Assembly: GCA_965233165.1 (NCBI GenBank)
Contig: CBDDRX010000087.1
Location: forward strand, 35-64,034
DNA length: 64,000 nucleotides
Origin: an uncultured bacterium
GTDB lineage: Bacteria > Pseudomonadota > Gammaproteobacteria > Burkholderiales > SG8-39
Reading direction: 5' to 3'
The first letter of the stretch is position 1; each line of letters opens with the position of its first letter. Shown in pieces: positions 12,632 through 32,840 of the stretch. The translations under genes were made by a program, and so were the position numbers. A model generated the notes under the pieces. It had not been told where the DNA came from and did no database searches. It worked only from the letters and a program-made list of their open reading frames with translations.

Positions 12632-12660
12632 GAGTCAGGACGGAATTCCAGGAGCGCACC

Positions 12661-13155
12661 ATGCAGACGATCCAGACCGGGCAGGAATCGGCGCAGGCCG
12701 GCCGCGAGTACCTCAGCTTCGTCCTCGGCGAGGCGCAGTATTGCATCGACATCCTGAAGGTGCAGGAGATCCGTACGTACGAGGCGCCGACGCGCATCGC
12801 CAATACGCCCGAGTTCATCAAGGGGGTCATGAACCTGCGCGGCAACATCGTGCCGATCATCGACCTGCGCGTGAAGTTCGGCCTGCCGGACCAGCGCTAT
12901 GACACGCAGACCGTGGTCATCGTCCTGAACGTCGCCAAGCGCACGGTCGGGGTGGTCGTGGACGGCGTGTCCGACGTGATCAACGTTCCCGCCGCCGAGA
13001 TCAAGCCCCCGCCCGAGCTCGGCGGGTCGCTCGACACGCAGTACCTGCAGGGCCTCGCCACCGTCAACGGGCAGATGATGATCATCATCGACATCGAGCG
13101 GCTCATGACCAGCCGCGACATGGCGATCATGGACGAGGCGGCGGCGCAGGAGTGA
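12661..13155 (+). CDS. cheW: CheW adaptor
   Basis: YLSFVLGEAQYCIDILKVQEI, GVMNLRGNIVPIIDLR, VVDGVSDV; ATG 12661 has a GGAG SD. Confidence 0.95.
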   Translation: MQTIQTGQESAQAGREYLSFVLGEAQYCIDILKVQEIRTYEAPTRIANTPEFIKGVMNLRGNIVPIIDLRVKFGLPDQRYDTQTVVIVLNVAKRTVGVVVDGVSDVINVPAAEIKPPPELGGSLDTQYLQGLATVNGQMMIIIDIERLMTSRDMAIMDEAAAQE

Positions 13156-14627: not shown

Positions 14628-14632
14628 CGCCC

Positions 14633-15685
14633 ATGCGCACCCGGGTGCTGATCGTCGAGGATTCTCCGGTCATGCAGCGGCTCCTCGCCGATCTGATCGG
14701 CCGCGACCCCGGGCTCGAGGTGGCCGGCATCGCCGGCGATCCCTACGAGGCGCGCGAGCTGGTGAAAGCGCTGCGCCCGGACGTGATGACCCTGGACGTC
14801 GAGATGCCGCGCATGGACGGCCTGACGTTCCTCGAGCGCCTGATGCGCCTGCATCCGATGCCGGTCGTCATGGTGTCCTCGCTGACCGAGCGCGACGCCG
14901 AGGCCTCCCTGCGCGCCCTGGAGCTGGGCGCCGTGGACGTCATCTGCAAGCCGCGCGGCGCGGACGTGCAGGGATTGACCGAGTTCGGCGCCTCCATCGC
15001 CGAGAGCCTGCGCGCCGCCGCGCGCGCCGACCTCGGCGCCCGGGCCGCGCCGCGCCGCGCCCCCTTGCGCACGCTCGAAGGGCCGGCCGACCGGCGCCTC
15101 CTCGAAGGCCAGCTGATCGCGATCGGCGCGTCCACCGGCGGGACCGAGGCGATCCGCGAGATCCTGGTTCGCCTGCCGCTCGACACGCCGCCGGTGGTCA
15201 TCGTCCAGCACATGCCGGAGATGTTCACGCGCATGTTCGCCAAGCGCCTGGACGAGCAGTGCACGCTCTCCGTATGTGAAGTCGTGGACCGCCAGCGCCT
15301 CGCGCCGGGCCACGCCTATGTCGCGCCCGGAAATTTCCACCTCATGGTGAAGCGCGCCGGCAAGGCCATCGAGGCGCGCGTCCAGCAGGGCCCGCCGGTC
15401 AACCGGCACCGGCCTTCCGTCGACGTCCTCTTCGACTCGGTCGCGGCGTTCTCGGCGCAGGCGACGGCGGTGATCCTCACCGGCATGGGGGGCGACGGCG
15501 CGGCGGGAATGCGCCGGATCCGGGCGGCGGGTGGGCAGACGCTCGCGCAGGACGAGGCGAGCTGCGTCGTCTTCGGCATGCCGAAGACGGCTATCGAGGC
15601 CGGTGCCGTGGACCACGTGCTCCCGCTGGACAGCCTTGCAGAGCGGATCATGGCGCGCGTGCGCGAGCCGGGCCGGCCAGCTTGA
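14633..15685 (+). CDS. cheB: CheB methylesterase response regulator
   Basis: REC (TLDVEMP) plus GASTGG, QHMP, HRPSVD, LTGMGGDG. Confidence 0.96.
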   Translation: MRTRVLIVEDSPVMQRLLADLIGRDPGLEVAGIAGDPYEARELVKALRPDVMTLDVEMPRMDGLTFLERLMRLHPMPVVMVSSLTERDAEASLRALELGAVDVICKPRGADVQGLTEFGASIAESLRAAARADLGARAAPRRAPLRTLEGPADRRLLEGQLIAIGASTGGTEAIREILVRLPLDTPPVVIVQHMPEMFTRMFAKRLDEQCTLSVCEVVDRQRLAPGHAYVAPGNFHLMVKRAGKAIEARVQQGPPVNRHRPSVDVLFDSVAAFSAQATAVILTGMGGDGAAGMRRIRAAGGQTLAQDEASCVVFGMPKTAIEAGAVDHVLPLDSLAERIMARVREPGRPA

Positions 15686-16662
15686 GCAGGGGCGGGCTGG
15701 CGCGCTGGCAGGCTGCGTTGCTCGGCGCCGCTTCGTTCGCCTTCGCGACGGCCGCCGTCGCGCAGGCCTACCCAGTGCGCCCGGTCAACCTGATCGTCCC
15801 CTGGAACGTCGGCGGCGGTACCGATGCCACCGCCCGGATCATCGCCAGCGCTCTGCAGAAGGAGCTGAAGCAGCCGGTCAACGTCGTGAACCGCACAGGC
15901 GGCTCGGGCGTCGTCGGCCATCAGGCGATCGCCTCGGCGCCTGCCGACGGCTACACGATCGGCCTCATCACCGTGGAGATCACGATGATGCACTGGACCG
16001 GCCTGAGCCAGCTCAAGCACTCCGACTTCACGCCGATTGCCCTGGTCACGTCCGACCCGGCCGGCGTCAGCGTGCGCGCGGACGCGCCGTACAGCTCGGT
16101 CAGGGATCTGCTGGCGGCGGTGAAGGCCAACCCGGGGAAATTGCGGGCTTCTGGAACGGAGCAGGGGGGCATCTGGCACCTCGCGCTCGCCGGAATGCTG
16201 AAGGACCAGGGCGTCGCGCCGTCGGCGATTTCCTGGATCCCGTCGCAGGGCGCCGCGGCGGGCCTGAAGGATCTCGTCGCGGGCGCCCTCGAGATCGTCA
16301 CCTGCTCGATCCCCGAAGCGCGCAGGCTGATCGATGCCGGCAAGGTGAAGCCGCTTGTCGTCATGGGCGGACACCCGCCGGCGCTCTACCCGGACCTGCC
16401 GACGTTGAGGAAGGAGCTCGGGAGTCACTGGGAAAGTGGCGCCTGGGGCGTAGTCGCCGGGCCGAAAGAGCTGCCGGCCAACGTGCAGGCCCGCCTCGTC
16501 GAGGCGCTGAAGAAAGTGCACGACTCGAAGGACTTCCAGGACTTCATGGCCCAGCGCGGCTCCGGCGTGATCTGGGCCGGGCCGGAGGAGACGGCGCAGC
16601 TCATGATGAAGTCGGACGCCGACAACGGCGCCATCATGAAGGCCGTCCGTATCGCGAAGTAG
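15682..16662 (+). CDS. Bug/TctC tripartite tricarboxylate transporter substrate-binding protein
   Basis: Signal peptide, [23 protein letters not shown] motifs; TTGA overlap with cheB. Confidence 0.92.
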
Positions 16663-16684
16663 CTCGGGCCCTATAATCGGGTCC

Positions 16685-19600
16685 TTGCAAGTCCTTGATG
16701 CGTTTCATCCGGCCGTAGCCGCCTGGTTCCGGGCCGCGTTCGCCGAGCCCACGCCTGCGCAAGTCGAAGCGTGGCCGGCGATCCGGGCGGGCCGGCACAC
16801 CCTGGTCGCCGCGCCGACCGGCTCCGGCAAGACCCTTTCCGCGTTCCTCGCCGCCATCGACGCGCTGGTGCGCGAGGGCATCGATACCCCGCTGCCCGAC
16901 GAGGCGCGCGTCGTCTACGTCTCCCCCCTCAAGGCGCTCGCGAACGACATCGAGCGCAACCTGCGGGCGCCGCTCGCCGGCATCCGCGCCGAGCTGCAGG
17001 CGCTGGGCTACCCCGACGTCGACATCACCACGCTGGTCCGTACCGGGGATACGCCGCAGTCCGAGCGCACCCGGATGCGCAAGCGGGCACCGCACATCGT
17101 CGTCACGACGCCGGAAACCCTCTACATCCTGCTCACCAGCGCATCGGGCAGGAAGATGCTCTCGACCGTGCGCAGCGTGATCGTGGACGAGATCCACGCC
17201 GTGGCGCCGAACAAGCGCGGCGCCCACCTCGCGGTGTCCCTGGAGCGGCTCGCCGCGCTGGCCGGGCCGGGCCTGGTGCGCATCGGCCTGTCCGCGACGC
17301 AGAAGCCGATTGACGAGATTGCCCGGTTCCTGGTCGGCACGCAGGGGGAATGCAGCATCGTGGACACCGGCCACGTCCGCTCGCGCGACCTCGCGGTGGA
17401 AATCCCGGCCGCGCCGCTCGAGGCCGTCATGTCGGGCGAGGTCTGGGTGCAGACCTACGATCGCCTCGCCGAGCTGGTCCGCGAGCATCGCACAACGCTC
17501 GTGTTCGTGAACACGCGCCGGATGGCCGAGCGCGCGGCCCGCGAGCTGACGGAGCGCCTGGGCAAGGGACAGGTCACGTCGCACCACGGCAGCATGTCGC
17601 GCGAGCACCGGCTGGACGCCGAGCAGCGGCTCAAGCGCGGCGAGCTGAAGGCCCTGGTGGCGACTGCGTCGCTCGAGCTGGGCATCGACATCGGCGACGT
17701 GGACCTCGTCTGCCAGCTTGGGACGACGCGCAGCATCGCCGCCTTCCTGCAGCGCGTCGGGCGCTCCGGCCACGCCGTGGGCGGGGTGCCGAAGGGCCGG
17801 CTCTTCCCGCTCTCGCGCGACGAGCTCGTGGAGTGCGCGGCGCTCCTGGATTCGGTGAAGCGCGGCGAGCTCGACCGGATCGAGATCCCGCAGAACCCGC
17901 TCGACGTCCTGGCCCAGCAGGTCGTGGCGGAAGTCTCCGCGCAGGAGTGGTCCGAGGAGGGGCTTTTCCAGCTTTTCACGAGAGCGTTTCCTTTCAGAAA
18001 TCTGGAGCACAAGGCTTACGTCGAAGTGCTGCAAATGCTCGCGGCCGGGTTCGACACGCGGCGAGGACGGCGCAGCGCCCACCTGCACCGCGACGCTGTG
18101 AACGGCGTCCTGCGCGGCCGGCGCGGCGCGGGCATCACCGCGATGACCTCGGGCGGGACCATCCCCGATACCGCGGACTACGCCGTGGTGCTGGAGCCGC
18201 AGTCCCAGCCCATCGGCTCGGTGAACGAGGACTTCGCCATCGAGAGCCTGGCGGGCGACGTCTTCCAGCTCGGCAACGCGTCCTACCGGATCCTGAGGGT
18301 GGAGCGCGGCACGGTGCGCGTGGAGGACGCGAAGGGCGCGCCGCCCGGCATCCCGTTCTGGCTCGGGGAAGCCCCGGGCCGCACGGCCGAGCTTTCGCAC
18401 TCGCTATCGCGCTTGCACGCCTCCTTCTCCCGGGAGGCCCTGCACAAGATCGGCATGAGCGAGGCGGCGGCGCAGCAGATCGTCGATTACCTGGAGGCCG
18501 CGAAGCGGGTGTTCGGCACGCTGCCGGGGCTCGACACCGTGATCCTCGAGCGCTTCTTCGACGAGTCCGGCGGCCAGCAGCTCCTGATCCACGCGCCGTT
18601 CGGCAGCCGGATCAACCGCGCCTGGGGCCTCGCGCTCAGGAAGCGCATGTGCCGCAAGTTCAACTTCGAGCTGCAGGCTGCCGCCACCGAGAATTCCATC
18701 GTCCTCTCGCTCTCGACCAGCCACAGCTTCCCCCTGGAGGACATCGCACGCTACCTCCACTCGCAGTCGGTCCGGCCGCTGCTCGTGCAGGCGCTGCTGG
18801 ATGCGCCGATGTTCGCCACGCGCTGGCGCTGGGATGCTTCGGTGGCGCTCGCCCTGCCGCGCTTCCGCGGCGGGCGCAAGGTGCCGCCGCAGATCGCGCG
18901 CATGGAGTCCGAGGACCTGCTCGCCTCGGTGTTCCCCGACCAGGTGGCCTGCGGCGAGAACATCGTCGGCGACCGCGAGGTGCCGGACCATCCGCTTGTC
19001 AACCAGACGATCGAGGACTGCCTCCACGAGGCGATGGACATCGACGGCCTGGAAAACGTGCTGAGAAGGATGGAAAACGGCGAGATCGCGATCGTCGCCC
19101 GCGACCTGACCGAGCCTTCGCCGCTCGCGCTCGAGATCCTGAGCGCCCGCCCGTACGCGTTCCTCGACGACGTGCCGCTCGAGGAGCGCCGCACCCATGC
19201 CGTGATGGCGCGCCGCTGGCTCGACCCGCAGACGGCCGCCGACCTCGGCAAGCTCGACCCCGGGGCCATCGCCCGTGCGGTCGAGGAGCTCCAGCCCGAG
19301 CCGCGCAATCCCGACGAGCTCCACGATGCGCTGATGAGCTTCGGGTTCTTGACGCGATCGGAAGTATCCAAATGGGAAGAACTACTGAAGATCCTTGAAG
19401 AACAGAAGCGGGCAACCCGGATCCACGACATCGTCGTCGGCGCGGAGCGCCTGCCGGAGATCCTGGCGATCTTCCCGGACGCGAAGCCGGGCATCGAGGT
19501 GCTCGAGGAGCTGAAGGGCAAGGAATGGACGCGCGAGGAGGCGTTGCGCGAGGTCGTGCGCGACCGCCTGCAGGGCAGCGGGCCGACGACTTCGGCCGCT

Positions 19601-20908
19601 CTGGCCGCCGCGCTGGATGTCTCCGGCTCCGACATGGAATCCACGCTGCTCGCGCTCGAGTCCGAAGGCTCGATCATGCGCGGGCGCTTCACGCCGGAAG
19701 CGGCCGGCGAGGAGTGGTGCGAGCGGCGGGTGCTGGCGCGCATCCACCGGTATACGGTCAACCGCCTGCGCGCCGAGATCGAGCCGGTGGAGCTGCGCGA
19801 CTTCCTACGCTTCCTCTTCCACTGGCAGCGCGCCGCGCCCGAGCAGCGCGTCGAGGGCCCCGATGCGGTGGCGGGCGTCGTCTCGCAGCTCGAGGGCTTC
19901 GAGGCGCCGGCCGCCGCATGGGAGACCGAGATCCTTCCCTCCCGGGTGAACGAGTACGACCCCGGCTGGCTCGACGAGCTAAGCCTCGCCGGCCGCGTCG
20001 CCTGGTCGCGCGTGCTGCCGATGAAGACGAACGGCGAGCGCACCCCGAGCCCGGTGCGCACCACGCCGATCGTCCTAACCCCGCGCCGCAGCCTCGCGAT
20101 CTGGACGGGCCTCTCGTCTTCTCCAGAGATCAATCTTTCTGCAAAGGGAGGACAGGCCAAGGCGTTCCTCGGGGAGCACGGCGCGTCGTTCTTCGAGGAG
20201 ATCGTCGACGGCACCGGCCTGCTTCGCGTGCAGGCCGAGGAGGCGCTGGGCGAGCTCGTCGCCCAGGGCCTGGTCAGCGCCGACAGCTTTGCCGGCCTGC
20301 GCGCGCTGCTCGTCCCTTCGGATCGCCGCCGCACCCCTCTCCACGGGCGGAAGCGGCGCGGCTCGCTGTTCGGGCTCGAGGACGCCGGCCGCTGGTCGCT
20401 CGTGCGCAGGAAGCCGGTCGAGAAGGACGAGGCGGTCGAGCACATCGCGCGCGCGCTCCTGCGCCGCTACGGCGTGGTGTTCTGGCGCCTCACCGCGCGC
20501 GAGGCCGGCTGGCTCCCGCCCTGGCGCGACCTCCTGCGCTGCTACCGCCGCCTGGAAGCCCGCGGCGAGATCCGCGGCGGGCGCTTCGTCGCCGGCGTCT
20601 CCGGCGAGCAGTTCGCCGCCCCGGAAGCCATCGGCCTCTTGCGCGATGCGCGCCGCGCCGAGCGCACGGGCGCACTCATCAGCGTGAGCGGCGCCGACCC
20701 CCTCAACCTCGTCGGCATCCTCACTCCCGGCCCGCGCCTACCGGCGCTGACCGGCAACCGCGTCCTCTATCGCGACGGCGTGCCGCTCGCCCTGCTCGCC
20801 GGCGGGGAAGTGCGCTTCCTCGACGAGATCGCCCCGGAAGCCGAGTGGACCGCTCGCAACGCGCTCCTGCGCCGCCAGGTCCCGCCCACGCTCGCCCTGC
20901 TCGGCTAG
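16685..20908 (+). CDS. lhr: Lhr SF2 helicase, long form with C-terminal domain
   Basis: [32 protein letters not shown]; [32 protein letters not shown]. Confidence 0.93.
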
Positions 20909-21666: not shown

Positions 21667-21682
21667 CTGTTGATATGTACAG
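21667..21682. promoter_or_regulatory. LexA (SOS) box upstream of imuA
   Basis: TA-CTGTTGATATGTACAG-TA matches CTGT-N8-ACAG. Confidence 0.9.
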
Positions 21683-21704
21683 TATAGACACGGATCCGAT
21701 CCCC

Positions 21705-22409
21705 ATGGCCCTCACCGAAGCAGTTCTGCAGCAGCACGGCGTCTGGCGCGGGGGGCAGCCGGGGGCGTTTTCCCAAACGGTGCCAACGGGTTATGGCGAG
21801 CTCGCGACGGAGCTGCCGGGCGGGGGGTGGCCGGTCGGAGCGCTGACGGAGCTGCTGGGGCTGCAGGAAGGGATCGGCGAGCTGCAGCTGGTGCTGCCGG
21901 CGCTCGCGAAGCTGACGGCGGCGGGGAAGCGCGTGGTGTGGCTCGCGCCGCCCCATATTCCGTACGCGCCGGCGCTGGCGGCGGCGGGAATCGACCTCGC
22001 GCACCTCGCGGTGATCCGCGCGCCCGGAAGGCGCGACGCGCTGTGGGCGGCGGAGCAGGTGCTGCGCGCGGGCCCCTGCCATGCGCTCCTCGCCTGGTTC
22101 CGCCACGCGCGCTATGAGGAGCTGCGCCGCCTCGCGGTGGCGGCGGAGGCGAGCCGCGCCTTCGTCGCGCTGTTCCGCGCGGCCGAGGCGGCGCGGGAGC
22201 CGTCCCCCGCTTCCCTGAGGATCTTCCTCGAGGGAACGGACGAAGGGCTGAAGCTGCACATCCTGAAGCGCCGCGGCCGCCCGGCCGAGGCGCCGATCCT
22301 CCTACCGGTGACGAGACCCGTCCATGCTCTGGGTCGCCCTGCAATTCCCCCCGCTGCCGCCCGGCACGCTCGAGCACCTCGCGGCCTGGGCCTGCCAATT
22401 CACGCCTAG
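21705..22409 (+). CDS. imuA: ImuA translesion accessory protein
   Basis: VPTGY..L..ELPGGGWPVGALTELL..GIGELQL, PYAPAL, ILKRRG. Confidence 0.93.
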   Translation: MALTEAVLQQHGVWRGGQPGAFSQTVPTGYGELATELPGGGWPVGALTELLGLQEGIGELQLVLPALAKLTAAGKRVVWLAPPHIPYAPALAAAGIDLAHLAVIRAPGRRDALWAAEQVLRAGPCHALLAWFRHARYEELRRLAVAAEASRAFVALFRAAEAAREPSPASLRIFLEGTDEGLKLHILKRRGRPAEAPILLPVTRPVHALGRPAIPPAAARHARAPRGLGLPIHA

Positions 22410-23499
22410 GGTCTCGCCGGAGCCGCCGCAGGCGCTGCTCGCCGAAGTGCAGGGCAGCCTGCGCTACTTCGGCGGCCTCGAGGCGCTGCTGGCGAAGATG
22501 CGCACCGGGCTGGGCGAGCTCGGCTTCGAGGCGACGCTCGCCGTAGCGGCAACCCCGCGGGCTTCGCTGTGGAAGGCGAAGGGAAGAAAGCGCTCGCTGG
22601 ACGAGCTGGCGCTTTCCAGCCTCGGGATCGAAACGGATTTCCTGAAGAGCATCGGTATCTCCACGGTCGGAGACCTGCGGGCGCTGCCGCGCGAGGGCCT
22701 GGCGAGGCGCTGCGACCGGGGAATCCTCGACGACCTCGACCGCGCGCTCGGCGTCCTGCACGAGTCGCGCCGGTTCTTCACGCCGCCGGAGCGCTTCGAC
22801 GCGACGCTCGAGTTGCCCGGCGCCGTCGCCCAGGCCGAAGGGGTGCTCTTCGCCGCACGCCGGCTGCTCGTGCGGCTGGAAGGGCTGCTCGCGGCCAGGC
22901 AGGAGGGAATCAGGGGTTTTGTACTGACATTGATCCATCCTCGGAGAGAGCTGAGTGTAGAAATGCGGCTCGCCTCCGCAGCGAGAGATACGGACCGCTT
23001 CGCGCGGCTGCTGCGCGAGAAGCTGTCCGCGATCGTGCTGCGCGAGCCGGTCGAGGCGATCCGGCTGCGCGCGGCGGATTTCGTGCCGCTGCACCCGGCG
23101 AGCGGCGGCCTGTTCGGCGACCCGCGCACCGAAGGCGAGGATTGGGCGCGGCTCGTCGAGCGCGTGCAGGCGCGCCTGGGCGCCGCGTCCGTCCACGGCC
23201 TGACCGTGCAGCCCGACCATCGCCCGGAGCATGCCTGGCGCCGCGTCGAGCCCGGGGAATGGGACCCGCGCGAGTTCGTCCCGCCGGGGCCGCGCCCGGC
23301 GTGGCTGCTCGAGGCGCCGCGCCGGGTCGCCGCCGAGGCGCTGGAGCTGCTCGCCGGGCCCGAGCGCATCGAATGCGGCTGGTGGGATGGCGACGACGCG
23401 AAGCGCGACTACTTCGTCGCCCGGCAGGGCGCGGCGCTCGTGTGGGCGTACCGGGAAATGACCGACGGCGGATGGTTCGTGCATGGCGTATTTGCCTGA
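22324..23499 (+). CDS. imuB: ImuB Y-family polymerase-like scaffold
   Basis: [48 protein letters not shown]. Confidence 0.93.
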
Positions 23500-26452
23500 T
23501 TACGCCGAGCTGCACTGCCTCTCGAACTTCAGCTTCCTGCGCGGCGCATCGCACCCGGAGGAGCTGGCGGAGCGCGCCGCCGCGCTCGGCTACTCGGCCC
23601 TTGCGCTCACCGATGAATGCTCGCTCGCCGGCATGGTGCGCGCGCACGTCGCGGCGAAGGAGCACGGCCTCAAGCTGATCGCCGGCACGGAGATTTCCCT
23701 GGAGGGAACGAAGCTCGTCCTCCTCGCGCCTGACCGGACCGCCTACGGCGCCATCTCGGCACTCATCACGGCAGGGCGCCGGCGCGCGAAGAAAGGGGCG
23801 TACACGCTCGAATGGAACGACTTGCAGGCATTGCCTCGTGCGGGCGTGCTCGCATTGCTCGCCAGTCCCGGAGAACGGAATGCGCCTCCCTTTAAAGATC
23901 TCTTCGGGAAAAACGGCTGGCTGGCGGCCGAATTGCATGCCGGGGCGAACGATCGCGTGAAGCTCGAAGGCCTGAAGGCCCTGTCGGACAGAACCGGGCT
24001 GCGCCTCGCCGCCGCGGGCGACGTGCACATGCACGTGCGCTCGCGCCGGCGGCTGCAGGACGTCCTCGCTGCGACGCGCCTGGGCAAGCCGGTCGCCGCC
24101 TGCGGCCAGGCGCTCTTTCCGAACGCCGAGCGCCACCTGCGCCTGCGCATGCGCCTCGCGCAGCTCTACCCGCCGGAGCTCCTGGAGGAGACGGTGGCGA
24201 TCGCCGATCGCTGCGCGTTCTCGATGGACGAGCTGCGCTACGAGTATCCCGAGGAGCTCGTCCCGCCGGGGGAGACGCCGGCGACCTGGCTGCGCAAGCT
24301 GACCGAGGAAGGATTGCGCTGGAGGTTTCCGCACGGGATTTCTCCCAAGGTGAGGAATCTCGTCGACCACGAGCTTGCCCTCGTGGAGGAGCTGAAGTAC
24401 GAGCCGTTCTTCCTCACGGTGCACGACGTGGTGCGGTTCGCGCGCGGCCGCGGCATCCTGTGCCAGGGGCGCGGCTCGGCGGCGAACTCGGCGGTGTGCT
24501 ACGCGCTCGGCATCACCGAGGTCGACCCGGCGCGCATGAGCATGCTCTTCGAGCGCTTCGTCTCGCGCGAGCGCAACGAGCCGCCGGACATCGACGTCGA
24601 CTTCGAGCACCAGCGCCGCGAGGAGGTGATCCAGTACCTCTACGAGAAATACGGCCGCGGCCGCGCCGCGCTCGCGGCCACGGTGATCTGCTACCGCGCG
24701 CGCAGCGCCATCCGCGACGTCGGCAAGGCGCTGGGAATCGGGGAAGCGGAGGTTGACCAGACCGCCAAGGGGGTATTGCATTTTGATGAACTGAAACCCG
24801 AAACCCCCTGGCTCGATCTCGCCGCGCAGCTGCGCGGCTTCCCGCGCCACCTCTCGCAGCACACCGGCGGGTTCGTGATCTCCCGCGGTCCGCTCTCCGA
24901 GCTGGTGCCGGTCGAGAACGCGGCGATGCCCGGGCGCACGGTGATCCAGTGGGACAAGGACGACCTCGAGGCGCTCGGCCTGCTCAAGGTGGATGTTCTT
25001 GCGCTGGGAATGTTGTCCGCGATCCGCCGCTGTCTGGATTTCATCGGGATGAAGATCGATGAGATCCCCGCCGACGACGCGGCGACGTACGCGATGATCC
25101 AGAAGGCGGACACGGTGGGCGTGTTCCAGATCGAGTCGCGCGCGCAGATGAGCATGCTGCCGCGCCTGCGGCCGGAGAATTTCTACGACCTGGTGATCGA
25201 GGTGGCGATCGTGCGCCCCGGGCCGATCCAGGGCGGGATGGTGCATCCCTACCTGAGAAACAGAAAAAAGAATCCTGAAGAAATCATTTATCCCAGCGAG
25301 GCAGTGAAGGGGGTGCTGCAGCGTACGCTCGGCGTGCCGATCTTCCAGGAGCAGGTGATGCAGCTCGCCATGGTCGCCGCGGGCTTCACGGCGGGGGACG
25401 CGGACCGGCTGCGCCGGGCGATGGCGGCCTGGAAGAGAAAAGGCGGCCTGGAGCCTTTCGAGAGAAAACTGAAGGACGGGATGCGCATGAACGGCTATGG
25501 CGCGGATTTCGCCGATGCGCTTTACCGCCAGATCCTCGGCTTCGGCGAATACGGCTTCCCGGAGTCGCACTCGGCGAGCTTCGCGCTGCTCGTCTACGTC
25601 TCCTCCTGGCTCAAGTGCCACCACCCGGCGGCGTTCTGCGCGGCGCTGCTGAACAGCCAGCCGATGGGCTTCTACGCGCCGGCGCAGCTCGTGCAGGACG
25701 CCCGCCGCCACGGGGTCGAGGTGCGCGGGCCGGACGTGAACGCGAGCGAATGGGACTGCACGCTGGAGCAGGGCGCGCTGCGCCTCGGGCTCCGGATGGC
25801 GGGTGGGCTGGGCGAGGCGGCGGGCCGGAAGATTGCCTCGGGAAGGCCGTACCGGTCCGTCCAGGAGCTCTCGGCGTTGAACAGGAAAGACCTGCGTGCC
25901 CTCGCGCAAGCCGGCGCCCTCCAGTCCCTCGCGAGGCACCGGCGCATCGCGCAGTGGGAAGCCGCCGGCGTCGAGCGCCTGCCGCTCCTCGCCGCGCCAG
26001 CGAGCGAGCGCGTCCCCGGCCTGCGCGCGCCGACGGAAGGGCAGGACATCGTCGCCGACTACGCCAGCCTCGGCCTCACGCTGGGCCGGCACCCGCTTGC
26101 CCTTTTACGGAAAAGACTTTCTTTCATGAAACTCGCGCGATCCGATCAGCTGCGCGAAGTGCCCCATGGACGCCCGGCGAAGACGGCGGGGCTGGTGACC
26201 TGCCGGCAGCGGCCGGATACGGCGAGCGGCGTCGTCTTCGTCACCCTGGAGGACGAAACGGGCTGCACCAACGTGGTGGTCTGGCGCCACCTGGTGGAGC
26301 GCCAGCGCCGGGAGCTGCTCGGCGCCCGCCTGCTGGGCGTGGAGGGGATCATCGAGCGCGACGGAGAGGTGGTGCACCTCGTGGCAAGGCGGCTTTTCGA
26401 CCACAGCGCCCTGCTCGGGCCCCTCCAAGCGGAGTCCAGGGATTTTAAATAA
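23483..26452 (+). CDS. dnaE2: Error-prone DNA polymerase DnaE2 (ImuC)
   Basis: [46 protein letters not shown]-terminal SRDF. Confidence 0.96.
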
Positions 26453-26471
26453 ACCCGAAAAGCCGGGTTTT
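26451..26471 (+). terminator. Probable terminator after dnaE2
   Basis: AAACCCG-AAAAGC-CGGGTTTT hairpin at the stop codon. Confidence 0.55.
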
Positions 26472-26489
26472 CACTAGTATGGGAGAGCG

Positions 26490-27032
26490 ATGGCGGCTAC
26501 CGTCGACATCCTCGGCCTGATCGCCGCGCGGAAGGACCGGCGGCCTGCGCGTTCCTATCCGGCGGTGGATGCGCTTTTCCGGCGCCTTGCCGCCGCCGCG
26601 CATGCCGCCGAGGCCGCTGCCGCGGAAGACTGCATCTGGGATGCGTGGATGCACCATCCCCACCGCGCCGCCGCGCAAGTGCTTGCCCGCGCGACCGACG
26701 ACATCGCCGCCCGCCGCTACGACATCGCCGAGACGCGGCTGACGGCGCTCCTGCGCAGCGCGCCGGACTTCGCCGAGGCCTGGCACAAGCGCGCCACGCT
26801 CTTCTACCTCCTCGGGCGCGACGAGGAATGCCTGCGCGACATCCGCCGCACGCTGGAGCTCGAGCCGAGGCACTTCGCCGCCATGCTGCATTTCGCCGAG
26901 ATCCTCCTGGCGCCGTCCCCGGACGGGCGCGCGCCGGAGGCGGTGCGGCTCGCCTGCTTCGCCGCGCTGGCGCTCCACCCGCACCTTTCCCGCGCGCGCG
27001 AGCTTCTCGAAAGCCGGGTTGACAAACCCTGA
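26490..27032 (+). CDS. TPR repeat protein
   Basis: IWDAW, APDFAEAWHKRATLFYL, LELEPRHFAA, ALALHP. Confidence 0.82.
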   Translation: MAATVDILGLIAARKDRRPARSYPAVDALFRRLAAAAHAAEAAAAEDCIWDAWMHHPHRAAAQVLARATDDIAARRYDIAETRLTALLRSAPDFAEAWHKRATLFYLLGRDEECLRDIRRTLELEPRHFAAMLHFAEILLAPSPDGRAPEAVRLACFAALALHPHLSRARELLESRVDKP

Positions 27033-27048: not shown

Positions 27049-27101
27049 CCGGCCGCGAACCGGGGCAGGGCCGCAGGGAGAGCGGCACCTATAATCGCGC
27101 G

Positions 27102-27407
27102 ATGGAACAACAAAACCACACGGTGGTCGTCGACAAGCAACTCGAGGATCTCATCCCGGTGTTCATGAAGAACCGGCACAAGGAAGTCGAGACGCTGAAG
27201 GCCGCGCTCGCGGCGGCGGACTTCGAGCAGCTCCGCCAGCTCGGGCACCGCATGAAGGGCGTCGGCAACTCCTACGGCTTCGAGCGCGTCTCGGTCATCG
27301 GCCGCCAGCTGGAGGACGGGGCGCGCAGCGGCGACCGGGCGGGGCTCGCGTCGCGCATCGCCGAGTACGCCGACTATCTGGCGAAGGTGCAGGTGGTCTT
27401 CGAATGA
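27102..27407 (+). CDS. Stand-alone Hpt phosphotransfer protein
   Basis: LGHRMKGVGNSYGF..VS.IG..LE Hpt motif; TATAAT at 27090-27095. Confidence 0.9.
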   Translation: MEQQNHTVVVDKQLEDLIPVFMKNRHKEVETLKAALAAADFEQLRQLGHRMKGVGNSYGFERVSVIGRQLEDGARSGDRAGLASRIAEYADYLAKVQVVFE

Positions 27408-28546
27408 TGGAAGCGGCCGCGCCGGTCCGCGCGTCGCAGCTCCAGGGCTTCCGCGTCCTGGTCGTGGACGACGACCCCGACATGGCGGCCCTTCTCGAGC
27501 GGCTGCTGAAGAAGGAGGGCATGGCCGTCGATACCGCGTTCGACGGCGACACCGCGCTGGTCAACGCGATGTCGTCCGCGCCCGACCTCATCCTGCTCGA
27601 CGTCATGATGCCCGGGCTGTCCGGGTTCGAGGTGTGCGAGCGCCTGAAGGGCGACGAGGCCACGGCGCTCATCCCGATCGTCCTGGTCACCGCGCTCGAG
27701 GACACGCAGAGCCGCGTGCGCGGCATCGAGGCGGGCTGCGACGACTTCCTCTCCAAGCCGATCCGCGCGGAAGAGCTGATCGCCCGGGTCAAGTCGCTGC
27801 GCCGCCTGCACGAGACGCGACGCGAGCTGGAGGCGCGCCGCCTCGCCGCCGAATACCAGCGCAAGGAGACGATCCGCAAGGCGTTCCTGCGCTACGTCTC
27901 GCCGCGCCTCGCCGAGCGGATCATCGCCGGCCTCGGCCAGGACGACGGCCCGTTCCAGAGCCACGCGCAGCGGATCAACGTGGTCGCGCTGTTCGCCGAC
28001 CTGCGCGGCTTCACCCGCCTCACCGAGTCGGTGGACGTCGACAAGGTGGTCGGGATGCTGAACGAGTACTTCGCCGTCACCACCGAGGCGGCCTACCGGC
28101 AGGAAGGGACGATCTTCAGCATCTCCGGCGACTGCCTGCTGGTCGGGTTCAACGTCCCGTTCCCGCAGGCCGACGCGACGGTGCGCGCGTGGCGCGCCGC
28201 GCAGGACATGATCGCCAGCTTCGCCCCGGTTCTCACCAACTGGACCGGGCGGGGCGGGGTCTCCACCGGCATGGGCATCGGCATCGCCTCCGGCGAGGCG
28301 ATCATCGGCAACATCGGCTCGCCGCACCACATGAGCTACACGATCATCGGCGACGCCGTGAACACCGCCGCGCGCCTGATGCAGATGGCGCGCGCCGGCG
28401 AGCTGCTCGTCTCCGGGCCGGTCTACGAGGAGATCCGCGCGCTCGTGCCCGCGGCCAGCGTCGCCGCGCGCGGCAACATCGCCCTGCGCGGGAAGTCGGA
28501 AGCGACCGCGGTCTACTCGATCGAGCTCGGAACGGTGCCGGCGTGA
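27404..28546 (+). CDS. Receiver plus class III nucleotidyl (adenylate/guanylate) cyclase
   Basis: REC (VDDD, LLDVMMP, LSKP); cyclase LFADLRGFT, SISGD, GIGIASG, YTIIGDAVNTAARL. Confidence 0.92.
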   Translation: MMEAAAPVRASQLQGFRVLVVDDDPDMAALLERLLKKEGMAVDTAFDGDTALVNAMSSAPDLILLDVMMPGLSGFEVCERLKGDEATALIPIVLVTALEDTQSRVRGIEAGCDDFLSKPIRAEELIARVKSLRRLHETRRELEARRLAAEYQRKETIRKAFLRYVSPRLAERIIAGLGQDDGPFQSHAQRINVVALFADLRGFTRLTESVDVDKVVGMLNEYFAVTTEAAYRQEGTIFSISGDCLLVGFNVPFPQADATVRAWRAAQDMIASFAPVLTNWTGRGGVSTGMGIGIASGEAIIGNIGSPHHMSYTIIGDAVNTAARLMQMARAGELLVSGPVYEEIRALVPAASVAARGNIALRGKSEATAVYSIELGTVPA

Positions 28547-29811
28547 AAGTCCTGATCATCGACGACGACGAGGACCTGCGCACCCTCATCGAGCATTTCA
28601 TCAAGGGCCACTGGGAGGACGCCGAGGTCGACCAGTACGACCCGAAGGAACGCGACATGCCGGACGCGGCCTTCCAGCTCGGGCGCTACGACGTGATGAT
28701 CCTCGACTACATGCTCGGGCGCGGCGACGGCCTGCAGTGGCTGGCACAGTTCAAGAAGCGCCACGACTGCCCGCCGGTGCTGTTCCTGACCGGCGCCGGC
28801 AACGAGATCATCGCCGTGCGCGCCATGAAGGCCGGCGCGGACGACTACCAGCGCAAGCAGGAGCTCTCGCGCGAGCGCCTGGTCTCGGCGATCCGGGGCC
28901 TGGTGCGCGAGGGCCACGAGAAGACCCTGCCGCCCGAGCTTGCCGCGCGCCTGGCAGGCGAGTCGCTCGGGGCGAAGATCCGCATCCCCGGCATCAAGGT
29001 GCTCCGCCTGATCGGCGAGGGCGGCATGTCCCGTGTCTATCTCGCCTCGCGCGAGTCGGACGACGAGCCGCTGGTGGTGAAGATCCTGCGCAGCGAGATC
29101 CTCTCCGACAAGAAGGCGCTCTCCCGCTTCCTCGAGGAGTACGCGATGATCGAGCGCATCCAGAGCCGGCACGTGGCGCGCATCCACAGCCATGGCACCT
29201 CGGAGGAGCATGCCTACCTGGTGATGGAGTTCTTCGAAGGCGGCGATCTGAGCAAGCGCATGGACGGGCGGGCGCTGCAGCCCGACGACGCGCTGCGCCT
29301 GTTCCGCGAGCTGATGTTCGCCCTGGGCGACATCCACGAGAAGGGCATCCTGCACCGCGACCTGAAGCCGCAGAACATGATGTTCCGCTCCGACGGCAGT
29401 CTCGCCCTCGTGGACTTCGGCATCGCCAAGCACATCGACGCCGCCGACCGCACCGGGCACGGCGAGATCCTCGGCACGCCGCGCTACATGAGCCCCGAGC
29501 AGGTGCAGGGCAAGGTGCTCGACCTGCGCACCGACATCTACAGCGCCGGGGTGCTCCTGTTCCAGATGCTCACCGGGCAGCACATGTTCGACGGCGAGAC
29601 GGCGATCGAGGTGGCCATGCACCACGTCAACTCGCAGCCGCCCTCCCTGCCGGAAGAGCTCGCGCCGTACCAGCGGCTGCTGGACAAGCTGGTGGAGAAG
29701 GACCGCGACGCGCGCTTCCGCAATTCCGACGAGGTGATCGGCTTCCTGTCGCGCAAGTTCTACCAGGGCACCGGCGCTATCGGCGCCGATCGTACCGCGC
29801 GCCTCGCCTAG
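28543..29811 (+). CDS. Receiver plus Hanks-type Ser/Thr protein kinase
   Basis: GTGA overlap with the cyclase stop; REC (IDDD, ILDY, FLT, QRK); kinase GEGGMSRVY, VVK, HRDLKPQN, DFG, GTPRYMSPE. Confidence 0.92.
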   Translation: MKVLIIDDDEDLRTLIEHFIKGHWEDAEVDQYDPKERDMPDAAFQLGRYDVMILDYMLGRGDGLQWLAQFKKRHDCPPVLFLTGAGNEIIAVRAMKAGADDYQRKQELSRERLVSAIRGLVREGHEKTLPPELAARLAGESLGAKIRIPGIKVLRLIGEGGMSRVYLASRESDDEPLVVKILRSEILSDKKALSRFLEEYAMIERIQSRHVARIHSHGTSEEHAYLVMEFFEGGDLSKRMDGRALQPDDALRLFRELMFALGDIHEKGILHRDLKPQNMMFRSDGSLALVDFGIAKHIDAADRTGHGEILGTPRYMSPEQVQGKVLDLRTDIYSAGVLLFQMLTGQHMFDGETAIEVAMHHVNSQPPSLPEELAPYQRLLDKLVEKDRDARFRNSDEVIGFLSRKFYQGTGAIGADRTARLA

Positions 29812-29814
29812 CTT

Positions 29815-30204
29815 CTAGGGAAGCTTCGCCCAGATTCCGCGCAGCTGGTCGGGGAGGTCCTTGGGGGAGAAGGGCTTGGAGATCGACCCCGCGGCGCCCA
29901 TGCGCAGGAGGTCGTCGAGCTCCGCCTGCGAGGCCTTGGCGGTGATGAAGACCACCGGCAGGGCGCTCGTCTCGGGGGTCTCCTTCATCTTCTTGAAGAG
30001 GGCCGGGCCGTCCATGCCCGGCATCATCCAGTCGAGCAGCACGAGGTCCGGCCCGAATTTCTTCATCGCCTCGATGGCGACCATCGGGTCGCCGACGACC
30101 TCGATCGACATCTTGCCGACGCGCTCGAGCGAGAGGCGCACGATGCGCTGGATGTCCTCGTCGTCCTCGTCGTAGCAGATCTTGTTGAGAGGCCGGTCGG
30201 GCAA
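29815..30204 (-). CDS. Single-domain response regulator
   Basis: EDDED, LLDWMMPGMDG, FITAK, ISKPF. Confidence 0.9.
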   Translation of the reverse strand: MPDRPLNKICYDEDDEDIQRIVRLSLERVGKMSIEVVGDPMVAIEAMKKFGPDLVLLDWMMPGMDGPALFKKMKETPETSALPVVFITAKASQAELDDLLRMGAAGSISKPFSPKDLPDQLRGIWAKLP

Positions 30205-30217
30205 GCGCTGCTCCTTC

Positions 30218-32023
30218 CTAGGATATGTGGCGCGGCAGCTCGAACCAGAAGGTGGTTCCGCCGTCGGTGCGCGGGTCGAAGCCGATGCGGCCCTGCATCA
30301 TCTCCACCAGGCGCTTGGAGATGGCGAGGCCGAGACCCGTGCCGCTCTTCTGCCGCGCGGTGGTCGAGTCCGCCTGCGCGAAGCGGCCGAAGATCCGGCC
30401 GCGGAACGACTCCGGGATCCCGGGCCCGCGGTCGTGCACGCCGACGCGCACGTTCGGGCCGCTTTCCTCCATCGTGACCTCGACCACGCCCCCTTCGGGA
30501 GAGAATTTCGCCGCGTTCGACAGCAGGTTGGTCATCACCTGGAGGAGGCGCTTGCGGTCGGCATGCACCGTCCGGTCCTGCGGGCTGCCGAGCAGCTCCA
30601 TGCGCACCTTGAAGCGCTCGCCGAAGGCCTTGTTGAGGACCAGCGCCTCGCGCACCAGCTCGCCCAGCTTGAAGACCTCGGGGACGAGCGTGAGCTTGCC
30701 CGACTCGATCTTCTCGATGTCGAGGAGATCGTTGATCAGGTCGAGCAGGCGCGTGCCGTTGCGCTCGGCGACGCCGGTCAGCTCCGAGACGTCCTGCGAC
30801 AGGTCGCCGAGCACGCCGGAGTTGATGAGCTGCAGCGAGCCGATGATGGAGGTGAGCGGCGTGCGCAGCTCATGGCTGAGCGTGGAGGTGAACTCCTTCT
30901 TCATCCGCTCGGCCTCGAGCTGGCGGGTCACGTCCTGGCCCTGCGCGATCACGGCGAGGATCGACCCCTCCGGGTTGACGAGCGGCGTGACCGTCCATTC
31001 GCAGACCACCTGCAGGCCGTCGCGGCGCGGGCTGCGGATCTTCAGGCCGGCGAGCGGCTCGCGGCTCGTGATGAGCGCCGCCCACTGCCGCTCGAACTCG
31101 CCGCGCAGCTCCGGCAGCACGAGGTGCTCCTGGACCTTGCCGCCGAGCAGCTCGGCCTCGGCGAAGCCGAACAGCAGCTCGGCCCCCGGGTTGACCTGGG
31201 TCATGCGCCCGTCGACGTCGAGCTCGAGAACCGCGATCGGCGCCCGGTCGGCGAACAGCGCGAGCTTGCGACCGCTCGCCTCGACCTGGGTGCGCGCGTC
31301 CCCGAGCTCGCCGAGCTGGCGCTCGAGGCGCTGGTTGAGCACGCTGTAGTCCTCGGTCAGCTTGCCGTAGGCGTGGCGCAGGCGGTAGGCGGCGTGGAAC
31401 ACCTGGGTGAGCCGGTAGGCGACCGCGACGTTGACCGCGTAGAACATCGGCACCAGCAGCGCGATCTCGATGAACAGGCGGTTGCCGAACGTCGCGAGGA
31501 CATAGGTGAAGGGCACTACGATGCCAGCCGCGTACGCGGCATAGATCGGCCACGAGGCGGCGTAGACGGGGATCCCGCCGGCCATCATCCCGGCGAGCAG
31601 GAAGGCGAGGAACACCTGCTGCTCGTCGGTGTGCGAAGGGAAGAACACCGCGCCGGCGAAGCCCCAGCTTGCGCCGGTGGCCAGCGCGGCGATGCCGAGC
31701 CAGCGCAGCCACTGGTCCGGCTGCTCGGCCTTCGTGGCGCTGCGGCGATAGGCGTAGAGCAGGGCGGCGCTCGCGCCGGTGACCAGCAGCACAAGGAGCC
31801 ACCAGAAGAGCACCAGGTCGCGCAGCCGCTCGTCCCAGAACTCGAACGTGGCGATGGCGCCGATCGCGAAGGTGCCGAGCAGGCCGACCCACATCTGCCC
31901 GTAGAGATGGTCTACGCGGTCGGCCAGGACGAGGCGCGGGTCCGCGCGCTCGCGCATTTCCGCCGCGGCGCCGCGCTCGAGCGCGATGCGCGAAGGTGCG
32001 GCGGAGCTGCCCGGTAAATTCAT
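30218..32023 (-). CDS. Membrane sensor histidine kinase with PAS domain
   Basis: About six TM helices, PAS (VNPGAELLFG..ELLG), H-box LSHELRTPL, NLLSNAAKF, DRGPGI, GTGLGL. Confidence 0.94.
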   Translation of the reverse strand: MNLPGSSAAPSRIALERGAAAEMRERADPRLVLADRVDHLYGQMWVGLLGTFAIGAIATFEFWDERLRDLVLFWWLLVLLVTGASAALLYAYRRSATKAEQPDQWLRWLGIAALATGASWGFAGAVFFPSHTDEQQVFLAFLLAGMMAGGIPVYAASWPIYAAYAAGIVVPFTYVLATFGNRLFIEIALLVPMFYAVNVAVAYRLTQVFHAAYRLRHAYGKLTEDYSVLNQRLERQLGELGDARTQVEASGRKLALFADRAPIAVLELDVDGRMTQVNPGAELLFGFAEAELLGGKVQEHLVLPELRGEFERQWAALITSREPLAGLKIRSPRRDGLQVVCEWTVTPLVNPEGSILAVIAQGQDVTRQLEAERMKKEFTSTLSHELRTPLTSIIGSLQLINSGVLGDLSQDVSELTGVAERNGTRLLDLINDLLDIEKIESGKLTLVPEVFKLGELVREALVLNKAFGERFKVRMELLGSPQDRTVHADRKRLLQVMTNLLSNAAKFSPEGGVVEVTMEESGPNVRVGVHDRGPGIPESFRGRIFGRFAQADSTTARQKSGTGLGLAISKRLVEMMQGRIGFDPRTDGGTTFWFELPRHIS

Positions 32024-32106
32024 CTGCGCTGCCAGTGTCTCGTTCCCCCGGGCAAATTCTATCGGGAACGCGCAGGGACTACGGTGAAATGAAGTGAAAA
32101 GCCCCT

Positions 32107-32736
32107 CTAGAAGGACTTGCCGTTGCGAATCACGCCGACGGCGACGCCTTCGATCGTCAGCGCCTCGCTACGGGCGTCGACCTCGATGGGCTCGAAGTCG
32201 GGGTTCTCGGGCAGGAGCTGCACGGCGTTGCCCTTGCGGCGCAGGCGCTTGACGGTCACCTCGTCGGCGAGGCGCGCGACGACGATCTGGCCGGAGCGGG
32301 CGTCCTGGGTCTTGTGCACCGCGAGGAGGTCGCCTTCCAGGATGCCGGCATCGCGCATGGAGAGACCGCGCACGCGCAGGAGGTAGTCGGCGCGCGGCGT
32401 GAAAAGGTTCGGATCGACCTGGTAGCTGCCCTGCAGGGGCTCCTCGGCCAGGATCGGGCTGCCGGCGGCGACGCGGCCGACGACCGGAAGCTCCATCAGC
32501 CGCCCGGCGCGCCCGGACGGGCGCGGCTCGAGCACGCGGATGCCGCGCGAGGAGCCGGAGGAGATCTCGATCGCGCCCTTCTTCTCGAGTGCGCGCAGGT
32601 GCTGCTCCGCGGCGTTCACCGAGCGAAAGCCCATGCGCTCCGCGATCTCGGCGCGCGTGGGCGGGAAGCCGGATACCTCCGTGAGCTCGCGGACCAGCTT
32701 CAGGATCTCGGACTGGCGATCTGTAAGTTCATCCAT
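32107..32736 (-). CDS. lexA: SOS repressor LexA
   Basis: [20 protein letters not shown] cleavage site, GLSM catalytic Ser, VTVKR catalytic Lys. Confidence 0.97.
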
Positions 32737-32738
32737 GT

Positions 32739-32754
32739 ATGGCAATATATACAG
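32739..32754. promoter_or_regulatory. Imperfect LexA box between divergent lexA and dinB
   Basis: Minus strand CTGTATATATTGCCAT: one perfect half-site, the other ends CAT instead of CAG; 2 bp from the lexA ATG. Confidence 0.65.
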
Positions 32755-32767
32755 TATGCGCTGGATT

Positions 32768-32840
32768 GTCCAATGACGAAGATCGTCCAATGACGAAGAT
32801 CGTCCAATGACGAAGATCGTCCAATGAGGAAGATCGTCCA
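32768..32840 (+). repeat. 17-bp tandem repeat (4.3 copies) containing the dinB start codon
   Basis: GTCCAATGACGAAGATC x3, then GTCCAATGAGGAAGATC, then GTCCA. Confidence 0.95.

Follow-up and report, generated by a model that had tools for sequence, protein, structure and literature searches.

Parallel Receiver–Hanks-Kinase and Receiver–Cyclase Genes behind One Histidine Phosphotransfer Protein: a Conserved Candidate Phosphorelay without a Transcription Factor

Introduction

Where does a phosphorelay signal go when none of the proteins encoded at its locus binds DNA? This question is raised by five signalling genes at positions 27102-32023 of a stretch of 64,000 nucleotides from an uncultured bacterium (GTDB lineage Bacteria; Pseudomonadota; Gammaproteobacteria; Burkholderiales; SG8-39), which we call the window (NCBI GenBank assembly GCA_965233165.1, contig CBDDRX010000087.1, positions 35 to 64,034 of the forward strand). 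On the forward strand they encode a histidine phosphotransfer protein (Hpt), a receiver (REC) fused to a nucleotidyl cyclase (REC-cyclase) and a receiver fused to a Hanks-type Ser/Thr kinase (REC-kinase); convergent to these run the genes of a single-domain receiver (response regulator, RR) and of a sensor histidine kinase (HK) with a PAS domain. The first-pass annotation had taken the set for a self-contained branched phosphorelay, in which HK, RR and Hpt feed the two receiver enzymes. The window is contig C87 of genome G000, a metagenome-assembled genome of 3.35 Mb in 161 contigs that is 93% complete and whose close relatives carry the NCBI name "Burkholderiales bacterium" and come from soil and similar samples. 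On balance we lean towards reading the cassette as a multistep His-Asp phosphorelay with enzymes, and not a transcription factor, as its outputs. The part of this reading that concerns Hpt and the two receiver enzymes is the best founded and is treated first.

Results and Discussion

Open reading frames (ORFs) read from the sequence matched the five annotated genes and their junctions exactly (Table 1). Their coordinates also bore out the description of two tightly coupled convergent operons: hpt and the REC-cyclase gene overlap by ATGA (27404-27407), the REC-cyclase and REC-kinase genes by GTGA (28543-28546), and the convergent stops of the REC-kinase and RR genes end at 29811 and 29815, leaving a gap of 3 bp (29812-29814). 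The plus-strand genes are translationally coupled via these 4-bp overlaps, while the HK stop and the RR start lie 13 bp apart. When the Pfam scores were judged against the curated cut-offs, all domains of the five proteins were well above them; NCBIfam gave only sub-threshold, domain-level matches. A DNA-binding domain is absent from all five proteins in both Pfam and NCBIfam, in agreement with the annotated lack of a DNA-binding output. A recent genomic island was considered and rejected, as there is no G+C step at the cassette and its identity to relatives is about that of the flanking dnaE2.

Table 1. Position of the cassette genes, their promoter-like elements and the neighbouring SOS features in the window (aa, amino acids; nt, nucleotides; bp, base pairs).
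Feature	Position	Strand	Description	Basis
hpt	27102..27407	+	Stand-alone histidine phosphotransfer protein, 101 aa, phospho-His49 in HRMKG	Pfam PF01627
REC-cyclase	27404..28546	+	Receiver and class III nucleotidyl cyclase, 380 aa; accessory branch	Pfam and alignment
REC-Hanks kinase	28543..29811	+	GTG start, 422 aa; conserved core output	Pfam
Single-domain receiver (RR)	29815..30204	-	129 aa, TTG start 6 nt after AGGAG	Pfam
Sensor histidine kinase (HK)	30218..32023	-	601 aa, non-hybrid	Pfam
-10 box TATAAT	27090..27095	+	6 nt upstream of the hpt ATG	
-10-like TAGAAT	32056..32061	-	32 nt upstream of the HK start	
lexA	32107..32736	-	Directly upstream of HK, 83-bp gap	Pfam LexA_DNA_bind and Peptidase_S24
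Upstream context	21667..27032	+	LexA box, imuA, imuB-like gene, dnaE2 and small TPR protein; co-directional, directly upstream of hpt	
LexA box	21667-21682		CTGTTGATATGTACAG, exact; overlaps the start of imuA (21675-22409)	

The Hpt protein (PF01627, 39.1 bits against a cut-off of 24.6) has the phospho-His motif HxxKG of multistep phosphorelays, and its His49, G53 and G55 are invariant in 22/22 orthologues. Two more Hpt genes of this subfamily are present in G000. One of them (G000:C38:12487-12771) is stand-alone beside ferritin and beta-eliminating lyase genes, without signalling neighbours, and the other (G000:C120:20629-20916), at the end of a contig, forms a fusion with an HK-REC.

The REC-kinase matches Response_reg with 64.0 bits and Pkinase (PF00069) with 161.1 bits against a cut-off of 31.7. 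Its receiver has D7/D8, the acceptor D55, T83 and K105, and its catalytic domain the complete set of Hanks residues, namely K180, E199, HRD (271-273), K275, N278, DFG (291-293), the G-loop and the Glu of APE, so that both the Pfam profile and the catalytic motifs are those of a Hanks-type Ser/Thr kinase. The receiver and Hanks residues are kept in 90/90 REC-kinase orthologues, including 18 from other families at only 33-48% identity, save for one Gly-to-Ala exchange in a G-loop and one uncovered alignment cell. As for the fusion as such, at least 35 clusters among the 150 best-matching ones (50% identity) from a library of 1.84 billion protein cluster representatives span both domains in one stretch. 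It is a sizeable, uncharacterised family, and our literature search found no characterised receiver–Hanks-kinase fusion. Both this fusion and the receiver–cyclase fusion are reportedly listed in Galperin's census of response-regulator output domains.

The REC-cyclase (Response_reg, 103.8 bits; Guanylate_cyc, 62.4 bits, cut-off 21.9) has the receiver residues D23/D24, D66, T96 and K118. The solved catalytic domains closest to it include those of Pseudomonas aeruginosa CyaB (3r5g, E 3.9e-24) and of 1wc0 (E 5.4e-18), and the domain also aligns to Synechocystis Cya2 (2w01) and to OaPAC of the photoactivated cyclases. In the alignment the window protein keeps both metal-binding Asp, the class IIIb-type Thr and the transition-state Asn and Arg, which makes it a class III nucleotidyl cyclase (PF00211); among 75 loci, 68 retain the D, D, N, R pattern. 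The Lys that specifies adenine in ATP-specific class III adenylyl cyclases, located before the second metal Asp, is Ser here, with a class IIIb-like Thr at the partner position. In guanylyl cyclases, the position of this Lys is taken by Glu. The product, most likely cAMP, is uncertain because the adenine-specifying Lys is missing. The annotated presence of all catalytic motifs is thus correct for the other four proteins and has to be amended for the cyclase. A second REC-cyclase is encoded in G000 (C93:64293-65354) and is 41% identical to that of the window.

Having the intact domains in hand, we looked at how far the linkage of Hpt to the receiver enzymes extends. An Hpt profile was searched against 401 genomes of the order (E <= 1e-8) and 400 genomes of the class (E <= 1e-10), tallies that include the unpublished genomes G318, G731, G565 and G463 (these enter no other result, apart from one on G318 given below), and gave matches in 51/401 and 36/400 genomes, respectively. 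The flanks of 71 Hpt matches were read by tblastn and Pfam. Family f8 (L033, L116-118) has one operon for a CHASE2-HisKA-HATPase-REC hybrid kinase, Hpt and REC-kinase. The same type of operon, with a REC-cyclase gene between those of Hpt and REC-kinase, is found in f20 (L119-L123, L125, L126), where genus g26 additionally has a stand-alone receiver convergent to the kinase gene, like the window. In f49 (L142) Hpt and REC-cyclase are accompanied by a receiver on the opposite strand; REC-kinase is followed by Hpt in f55 (L127) and f73 (L176, L181, L185); a REC-Hpt fusion is divergent from REC-kinase in f61 (L149); and f133, which belongs to another order (L182, L183), has an operon of HK-REC, Hpt and REC-kinase. 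The Hpt/REC-kinase pairing hence occurs in three gene orders, in seven families and in at least two orders, and the terminal receivers are linked to Hpt well beyond one lineage.

The same Hpt subfamily is found with other outputs as well, such as an OmpR-type regulator in genus g23 of the window's own family f1 (L143), two REC-HD-GYP proteins (L174) or, in many families, an NtrC-type regulator together with an HK-REC-REC kinase (L160 and others). At L160:5558-9912 the Hpt gene lies between those of an NtrC-type sigma-54 activator and a two-receiver HK, flanked by GlmS and a sugar transferase, and 15 loci resemble it in having Hpt between a receiver gene and an HK-receiver kinase (L156, L157, L159, L161-L166, L169, L170, L172, L173, L177, L180).

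A second profile, made from the kinase receiver and its linker, removes the bias of starting from Hpt. It matched 25/401 genomes of the order sample at E <= 1e-57, and in 23/25 of them an Hpt gene is found within 2 kb on the same contig; the two exceptions (G279, G318) have REC-kinase and Hpt split between short contigs. In the class sample, the best non-own REC-kinase matches (E <= 1e-48) are within 2 kb of Hpt in 5/5 cases, and the weaker matches to this receiver-plus-linker profile, which lie in ORFs of 368-773 aa, are not adjacent to Hpt. This Hpt is present in 17/30 class genomes with a REC-kinase-like match versus 18/370 without; all these tallies are to be read as descriptions and not as tests, related genomes not being independent.

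A tree of the receivers completes the picture (71 domains, 130 columns, quick search with SH-aLRT support, several long branches flagged): the kinase receivers all fall into a single clade (support 100), as do the cyclase receivers into another (89). Because the domains and motifs are intact, the operon is coupled and has its own -10 box, the Hpt/REC-kinase neighbourhood is conserved and the receivers form these clades, we consider it probable that phosphorylated Hpt (His49) would hand its phosphate to Asp55 of the REC-kinase and, where present, to Asp66 of the REC-cyclase. One input would then lead both to Ser/Thr phosphorylation of substrates and to a cyclic nucleotide. What the sequences show directly are the domains, the catalytic residues and a conserved gene order; from these we infer each phosphotransfer, which way the phosphate flows and how the enzymes respond to it. 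The proposal that Hpt feeds both receiver enzymes is strongly backed by the neighbourhood, which is conserved in several families of at least two orders, and by the co-directional operons of hybrid HK, Hpt, REC-cyclase and REC-kinase. Of the synteny expected for the full set, the Hpt/REC-kinase pairing indeed recurs across families; the operon of PAS-HK and RR was found in f1 only.

Within f1 the arrangement is stable with respect to its core. A REC-kinase orthologue with 72-90% identity is present in 22/24 other genomes of the window's genus, and 20 loci of this genus have the order dnaE2, TPR gene, hpt, (REC-cyclase), REC-kinase and then the convergent RR-HK, with the cyclase in 11/19 loci that have hpt. 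The Hpt alignment gave 80 further loci, all with at least 60% Hpt identity and some from the same genomes as the 20 genus loci; the tallies for each gene count only those loci with enough sequence. A REC-cyclase follows hpt in 50/75 of these loci, and in the remaining 25 the REC-kinase gene abuts hpt. REC-kinase is present in 66/67 loci with room (L064 is without), RR in 56/56, HK beside RR in 58/58, and the RR gene lies at most 150 bp from the kinase gene in 50/68. A DUF3391/HD_5 gene of the HD-GYP type is located between the kinase gene and RR in 14/56 loci, 12 of which also have the cyclase (for example L047:9707-10927, L061:6692-7909, L080:9730-10926, L092:9668-10879). Hpt, REC-kinase and RR thus make up the fixed core of the clade; the parts that vary are the cyclase, the HD-GYP protein and HK (the last in two of the genus genomes), so that the annotated five genes are not a fixed set.

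The hpt operon comes with a conserved promoter-like element. In 57/67 related loci, the end of an exact TATAAT lies 6-10 nt upstream of the hpt ATG, with a background of only 78 such hexamers on the plus strand of the 908 kb of the 80 loci. Of the ten loci without the close box, four have TATAAT 35-83 nt upstream; in the other six (L092, L093, L096, L099, L100, L106) the sole such element is a hexamer resembling TATAAA or TTTAAA, located 73-77 nt upstream of hpt. The hpt start codon is fixed by the position of the conserved box 6-10 nt upstream of it. The box points to a dedicated promoter of the hpt operon and to an hpt mRNA that would be leaderless or nearly so, and it weakens the idea that hpt is expressed solely via read-through from dnaE2. 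For the second operon, inspection of the intergenic regions of 56 loci by eye shows, in most of them, TAGAAT or TATAAT some 25-35 nt upstream of the HK ATG. Between the -10-like box and the HK ATG (32024-32061 in the window), many loci have a short GC-rich inverted repeat (such as GGCGCAGG...CCTGCGCC) which stops at the ATG or right beside it and could gate translation.

The two proteins of the convergent operon have intact phosphotransfer motifs. RR (Response_reg, 82.0 bits) has D13/D14, D58, T88 and K110, of which D14, D58 and K110 are invariant in 14/14 aligned sequences, as expected for a receiver. HK, with PAS_4 (62.3 bits), HisKA (67.1 bits) and HATPase_c (100.4 bits), has the domains of a histidine kinase: about six hydrophobic segments (residues 44-201) and the PAS domain (254-368) are followed by HisKA with His384 and by HATPase_c with the N, G1, F and G2 boxes. 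For the N-terminus (residues 1-250) no Pfam family matched even at E 0.1. Non-hybrid kinases reach an Hpt via a separate receiver, and phosphotransfer between REC and Hpt is reversible. In f1, the HK with its six transmembrane segments and PAS domain would accordingly autophosphorylate at His384 and load Asp58 of RR, from which Hpt would receive the phosphate; for this input route, mechanistically the simplest, with RR taken as the intermediate receiver, we see the chances as evenly balanced. In the relatives with a CHASE2 hybrid kinase, Hpt is probably the donor to RR, which would be a third acceptor or a sink there. The hybrid kinase, of which we found none in the f1 loci examined and no orthologue in G000, would have been lost in f1, with the reversible REC-Hpt step being run backwards from a newly recruited kinase.

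A number of observations speak against a closed chain that begins with HK and ends in two active enzymes. G000 encodes at least six HK-REC hybrids without Hpt, possible donors to Hpt in the manner of the Pseudomonas HptB pathway, besides the two additional Hpt proteins of the same subfamily, so that a self-contained relay cannot be claimed. In the receiver tree, RR shares a group (support 99) with stand-alone receivers from f20 genus g26 and from f49, which are loci that already have a hybrid HK. At L021 and L027 (genomes G007 and G018 of the window's genus), hpt, both receiver-enzyme genes and RR are kept with no HK beside RR, and at L027 lexA is followed directly by RR, with a GGDEF-EAL-like gene beyond lexA. 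On the cyclase side, the position of the adenine-specifying Lys reads S 36, N 28 and G 4 across 75 orthologues, and six loci show changes at other catalytic positions, with three or more such changes each in L092, L093, L099 and L100. These four loci all have an insert of HD-GYP size, which was confirmed as such a gene in L092. Both genomes with HK-less loci encode a full-length HK homologue elsewhere (49-50% identity), and a paralogue like these homologues is absent from G000. Where the neighbourhood of HK would be, L027:3397-5760 (G018) encodes a protein of 787 aa with CxxCH in its periplasmic-looking N-terminal part and, by eye, GGDEF-EAL-typical sequence.

The position of RR in the tree bears on its role. 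Ten hybrid-kinase receivers and two other receivers form a separate clade (93) with RR outside, which rules out that RR is a receiver split off a hybrid kinase. Because RR groups with stand-alone receivers and not with those of hybrid HKs, it need not be the first receiver of the relay; going by these relationships it is an old member of the cassette that once coexisted with a hybrid kinase. We propose that RR serves as entry receiver or as phosphate sink, and not simply as the middle step of the first-pass annotation, since RR orthologues adjoin cassettes whose genomes possess a hybrid HK anyway. A predicted Hpt-RR complex weakly supports contact between the two: it scored 0.55 (best control 0.00), the runs agreed in at least 97% of the contacts and the pLDDT of the partner was at least 84. 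The mark is passed by 116/157 solved complexes and 2/215 mismatched pairs, and scores of at most 0.60 within the passes comprise only 18 of the 157 solved complexes and both passing mismatches. Because Hpt-receiver complexes have already been solved, the pass may reflect likeness only.

These data can also be read as two adjacent circuits, in which the PAS-HK and RR are an ordinary pair, Hpt is loaded by hybrid kinases encoded elsewhere and the receiver enzymes are still the outputs of Hpt; RR would then act alone, CheY-like, or as a phosphate sink for Hpt. The hybrid kinases without Hpt in G000, the coexistence of RR orthologues with a cassette-encoded hybrid HK in f20 genus g26 and f49, and the missing HK beside RR in G018 and G007 all fit this arrangement, for which the loading of a stand-alone Hpt by orphan hybrid sensors at other loci gives a precedent in the HptB pathway (PMC5085249). 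It has to cope, however, with the lack of a hybrid HK in the f1 loci examined, with an HK-RR operon that abuts the cassette in 58/58 loci with room, and with an RR gene that lies 3 bp from the kinase gene in the window and within 150 bp of it in 50/68 loci. We regard the two-circuit arrangement as possible and rather doubtful; the predicted Hpt-RR complex is compatible with it and with relay entry through RR alike. That the genes are unrelated signalling genes which became neighbours by chance in one lineage is already disfavoured, and we hold it to be extremely improbable. G000 is rich in signalling genes (30 kinase-like matches), and a single clade with at least 60% Hpt identity accounts for the majority of the 80 loci, but the pairing recurs in three gene orders, seven families and at least two orders, the kinase-first adjacency amounts to 23/25 and 5/5 genomes, and the genes overlap by 4 bp. 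For the cassette as a whole we hence stay with the multistep phosphorelay, in which Hpt feeds the receiver enzymes.

The cassette lies between two SOS loci, as had been annotated, and this setting is real and conserved within f1. lexA is found directly upstream of HK and on the same strand in 55/56 related loci, and dnaE2 lies upstream of hpt in related loci. In the window, imuA (NF033429, 219 bits), dnaE2 (NF004225, 1398 bits) and the TPR protein (180 aa, Pfam) are clear matches; the imuB-like ORF (22324-23499, 391 aa) has no Pfam or NCBIfam match and is named from its position only. Downstream of the cassette, dinB is divergent from lexA with its start codon at 32824. Outside f1, mfd is present in the fetched flank of 14/18 Hpt/REC-kinase loci, in three of six families. 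In f8 and f20, mfd follows the kinase gene immediately or with RR between, and is itself followed by a DUF4072-HAD hydrolase gene; in f73 it lies 2.5-3 kb upstream with unrelated genes between. The fetched flanks of f55, f61 and f133 are devoid of mfd. Examples are L033:10289-13705, L121:9917-13351, L123:480-3938, L142 (f49):1772-5320 and L176:42-2879.

Could the module then be part of the DNA-damage response or an input to it, being co-expressed with SOS genes or acting on them, with the kinase phosphorylating repair or SOS proteins? The constancy of lexA upstream of HK, including L027 where lexA is followed directly by RR, speaks for this, as do the co-directional dnaE2 and TPR genes before hpt, with no terminator predicted between them and hpt, and the presence of mfd near 14/18 pairs in different gene orders. 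Read-through from lexA or dnaE2 into the cassette operons may occur. Both operons, on the other hand, have their own conserved -10 boxes, and no LexA box (consensus CTGT-N8-ACAG) lies near hpt or HK, either exact or with one mismatch. The sole exact match in the window is that before imuA, and boxes with one mismatch number 6 versus 11.7 expected by chance, i.e., fewer. Additionally, synteny within one family can be inherited without function, and the flanks of f55, f61 and f133 contain no mfd. We therefore judge a role in the DNA-damage response to be improbable.

Some features of the surroundings were seen in passing. lexA (start 32736, minus strand) also looks leaderless, with TGGACA-17-TATATT ending 7 nt before its ATG (32737-32772), and this promoter-like element is overlapped by only a half LexA site (TACTGTATAT). 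Four head-to-tail copies of a 17-bp unit (TCCAATGACGAAGATCG) occupy 32768-32840 and extend into the dinB start codon; each copy holds ATG and the first dinB codons, but its length is not divisible by three. Farther upstream, at 9298-20908, the window encodes chemotaxis proteins (a match to a CheA-type Hpt near 9.3 kb, then CheR, CheD and CheB), a TctC receptor and, just ahead of the imuA promoter, a Lhr-type helicase of 1407 aa.

How does the cassette compare with known systems? In the Bacillus Spo0F-Spo0B-Spo0A relay, non-hybrid kinase, single-domain receiver, phosphotransferase and receiver-output are separate proteins, as in the window; the phosphotransferase there is a Spo0B-like dimer, whereas the window has a monomeric Hpt (PF01627) and branched enzyme outputs. 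Caulobacter ChpT, which serves CtrA and CpdR, is likewise one phosphotransferase for two parallel receivers, one of them single-domain, but the phosphotransferase there is DHp-like, its target CtrA is a DNA-binding protein and the hybrid CckA serves as kinase. Comparable, too, are the CHASE2 hybrid HK-Hpt-REC operons of the sister families, whose Hpt, REC-kinase, REC-cyclase and stand-alone receiver are orthologous to those of the window; they differ in having the hybrid kinase as an input within the operon and mfd, not lexA and dnaE2, as neighbour. The cyclase shares the metal Asp pair, Thr, Asn and Arg with the class IIIb cyclases CyaB (3r5g) and the receiver-regulated cyanobacterial CyaC (1wc0), and differs from them by Ser, Asn or Gly in place of the adenine-specifying Lys and by an N-terminal receiver that would be fed from Hpt.

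For the protein-phosphorylation branch, a likeness is seen in the HptB-HsbR-HsbA pathway of P. aeruginosa. According to PMC5085249, three orphan hybrid sensors load HptB, which controls the receiver-coupled Ser kinase/phosphatase HsbR. Like the window set, it has a stand-alone Hpt acting on a receiver enzyme that controls protein Ser phosphorylation, no DNA-binding output, and an hpt gene in one operon with its target (PMC5085249). The output of the window set is instead a Hanks-type kinase, with a cyclase as second branch, and the inputs of HptB are hybrid kinases at other loci. The partner-switch domains of the HptB pathway (PP2C-type phosphatase/anti-sigma-type kinase and STAS partner) are absent from the five proteins in Pfam and NCBIfam. 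Within the literature searches made here, which included PMC12471899 and PMC1262709, no description of a relay from Hpt to a REC-Hanks kinase or a REC-cyclase turned up.

Conclusion

In summary, all parts of the cassette come from known families and its logic is that of a known multistep relay. New is an Hpt with parallel Hanks-kinase and cyclase receivers and no transcription factor, conserved in seven families with the input module being exchanged. The steady company of repair genes raises a hypothesis that is cheap to test: the Hpt/REC-Hanks module, placed between the imuA-imuB-dnaE2 and lexA/dinB loci in f1 and beside mfd in other families and another order, could be a conserved signalling partner of DNA-repair loci, in which a membrane or envelope signal would pass via Hpt to a Ser/Thr kinase and a cyclic nucleotide and these would tune mutagenic translesion synthesis, LexA or transcription-coupled repair. 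We see this as a long shot; if true, it would be a post-translational SOS input, which is not known in Proteobacteria. The cyclase subfamily with Ser, Asn or Gly at the position of the adenine-specifying Lys may make an unexpected nucleotide. The natural swap of the input, from a CHASE2 hybrid kinase within the operon to a convergent PAS kinase with a stand-alone receiver, can show whether a receiver that formerly was an acceptor or a sink is reusable as the entry to a relay. Finally, receiver–Hanks fusions combine both major phosphorylation systems of bacteria in a single protein, and the cassette, with a predicted donor in Hpt and a second parallel output, offers a compact system to test how they are joined.

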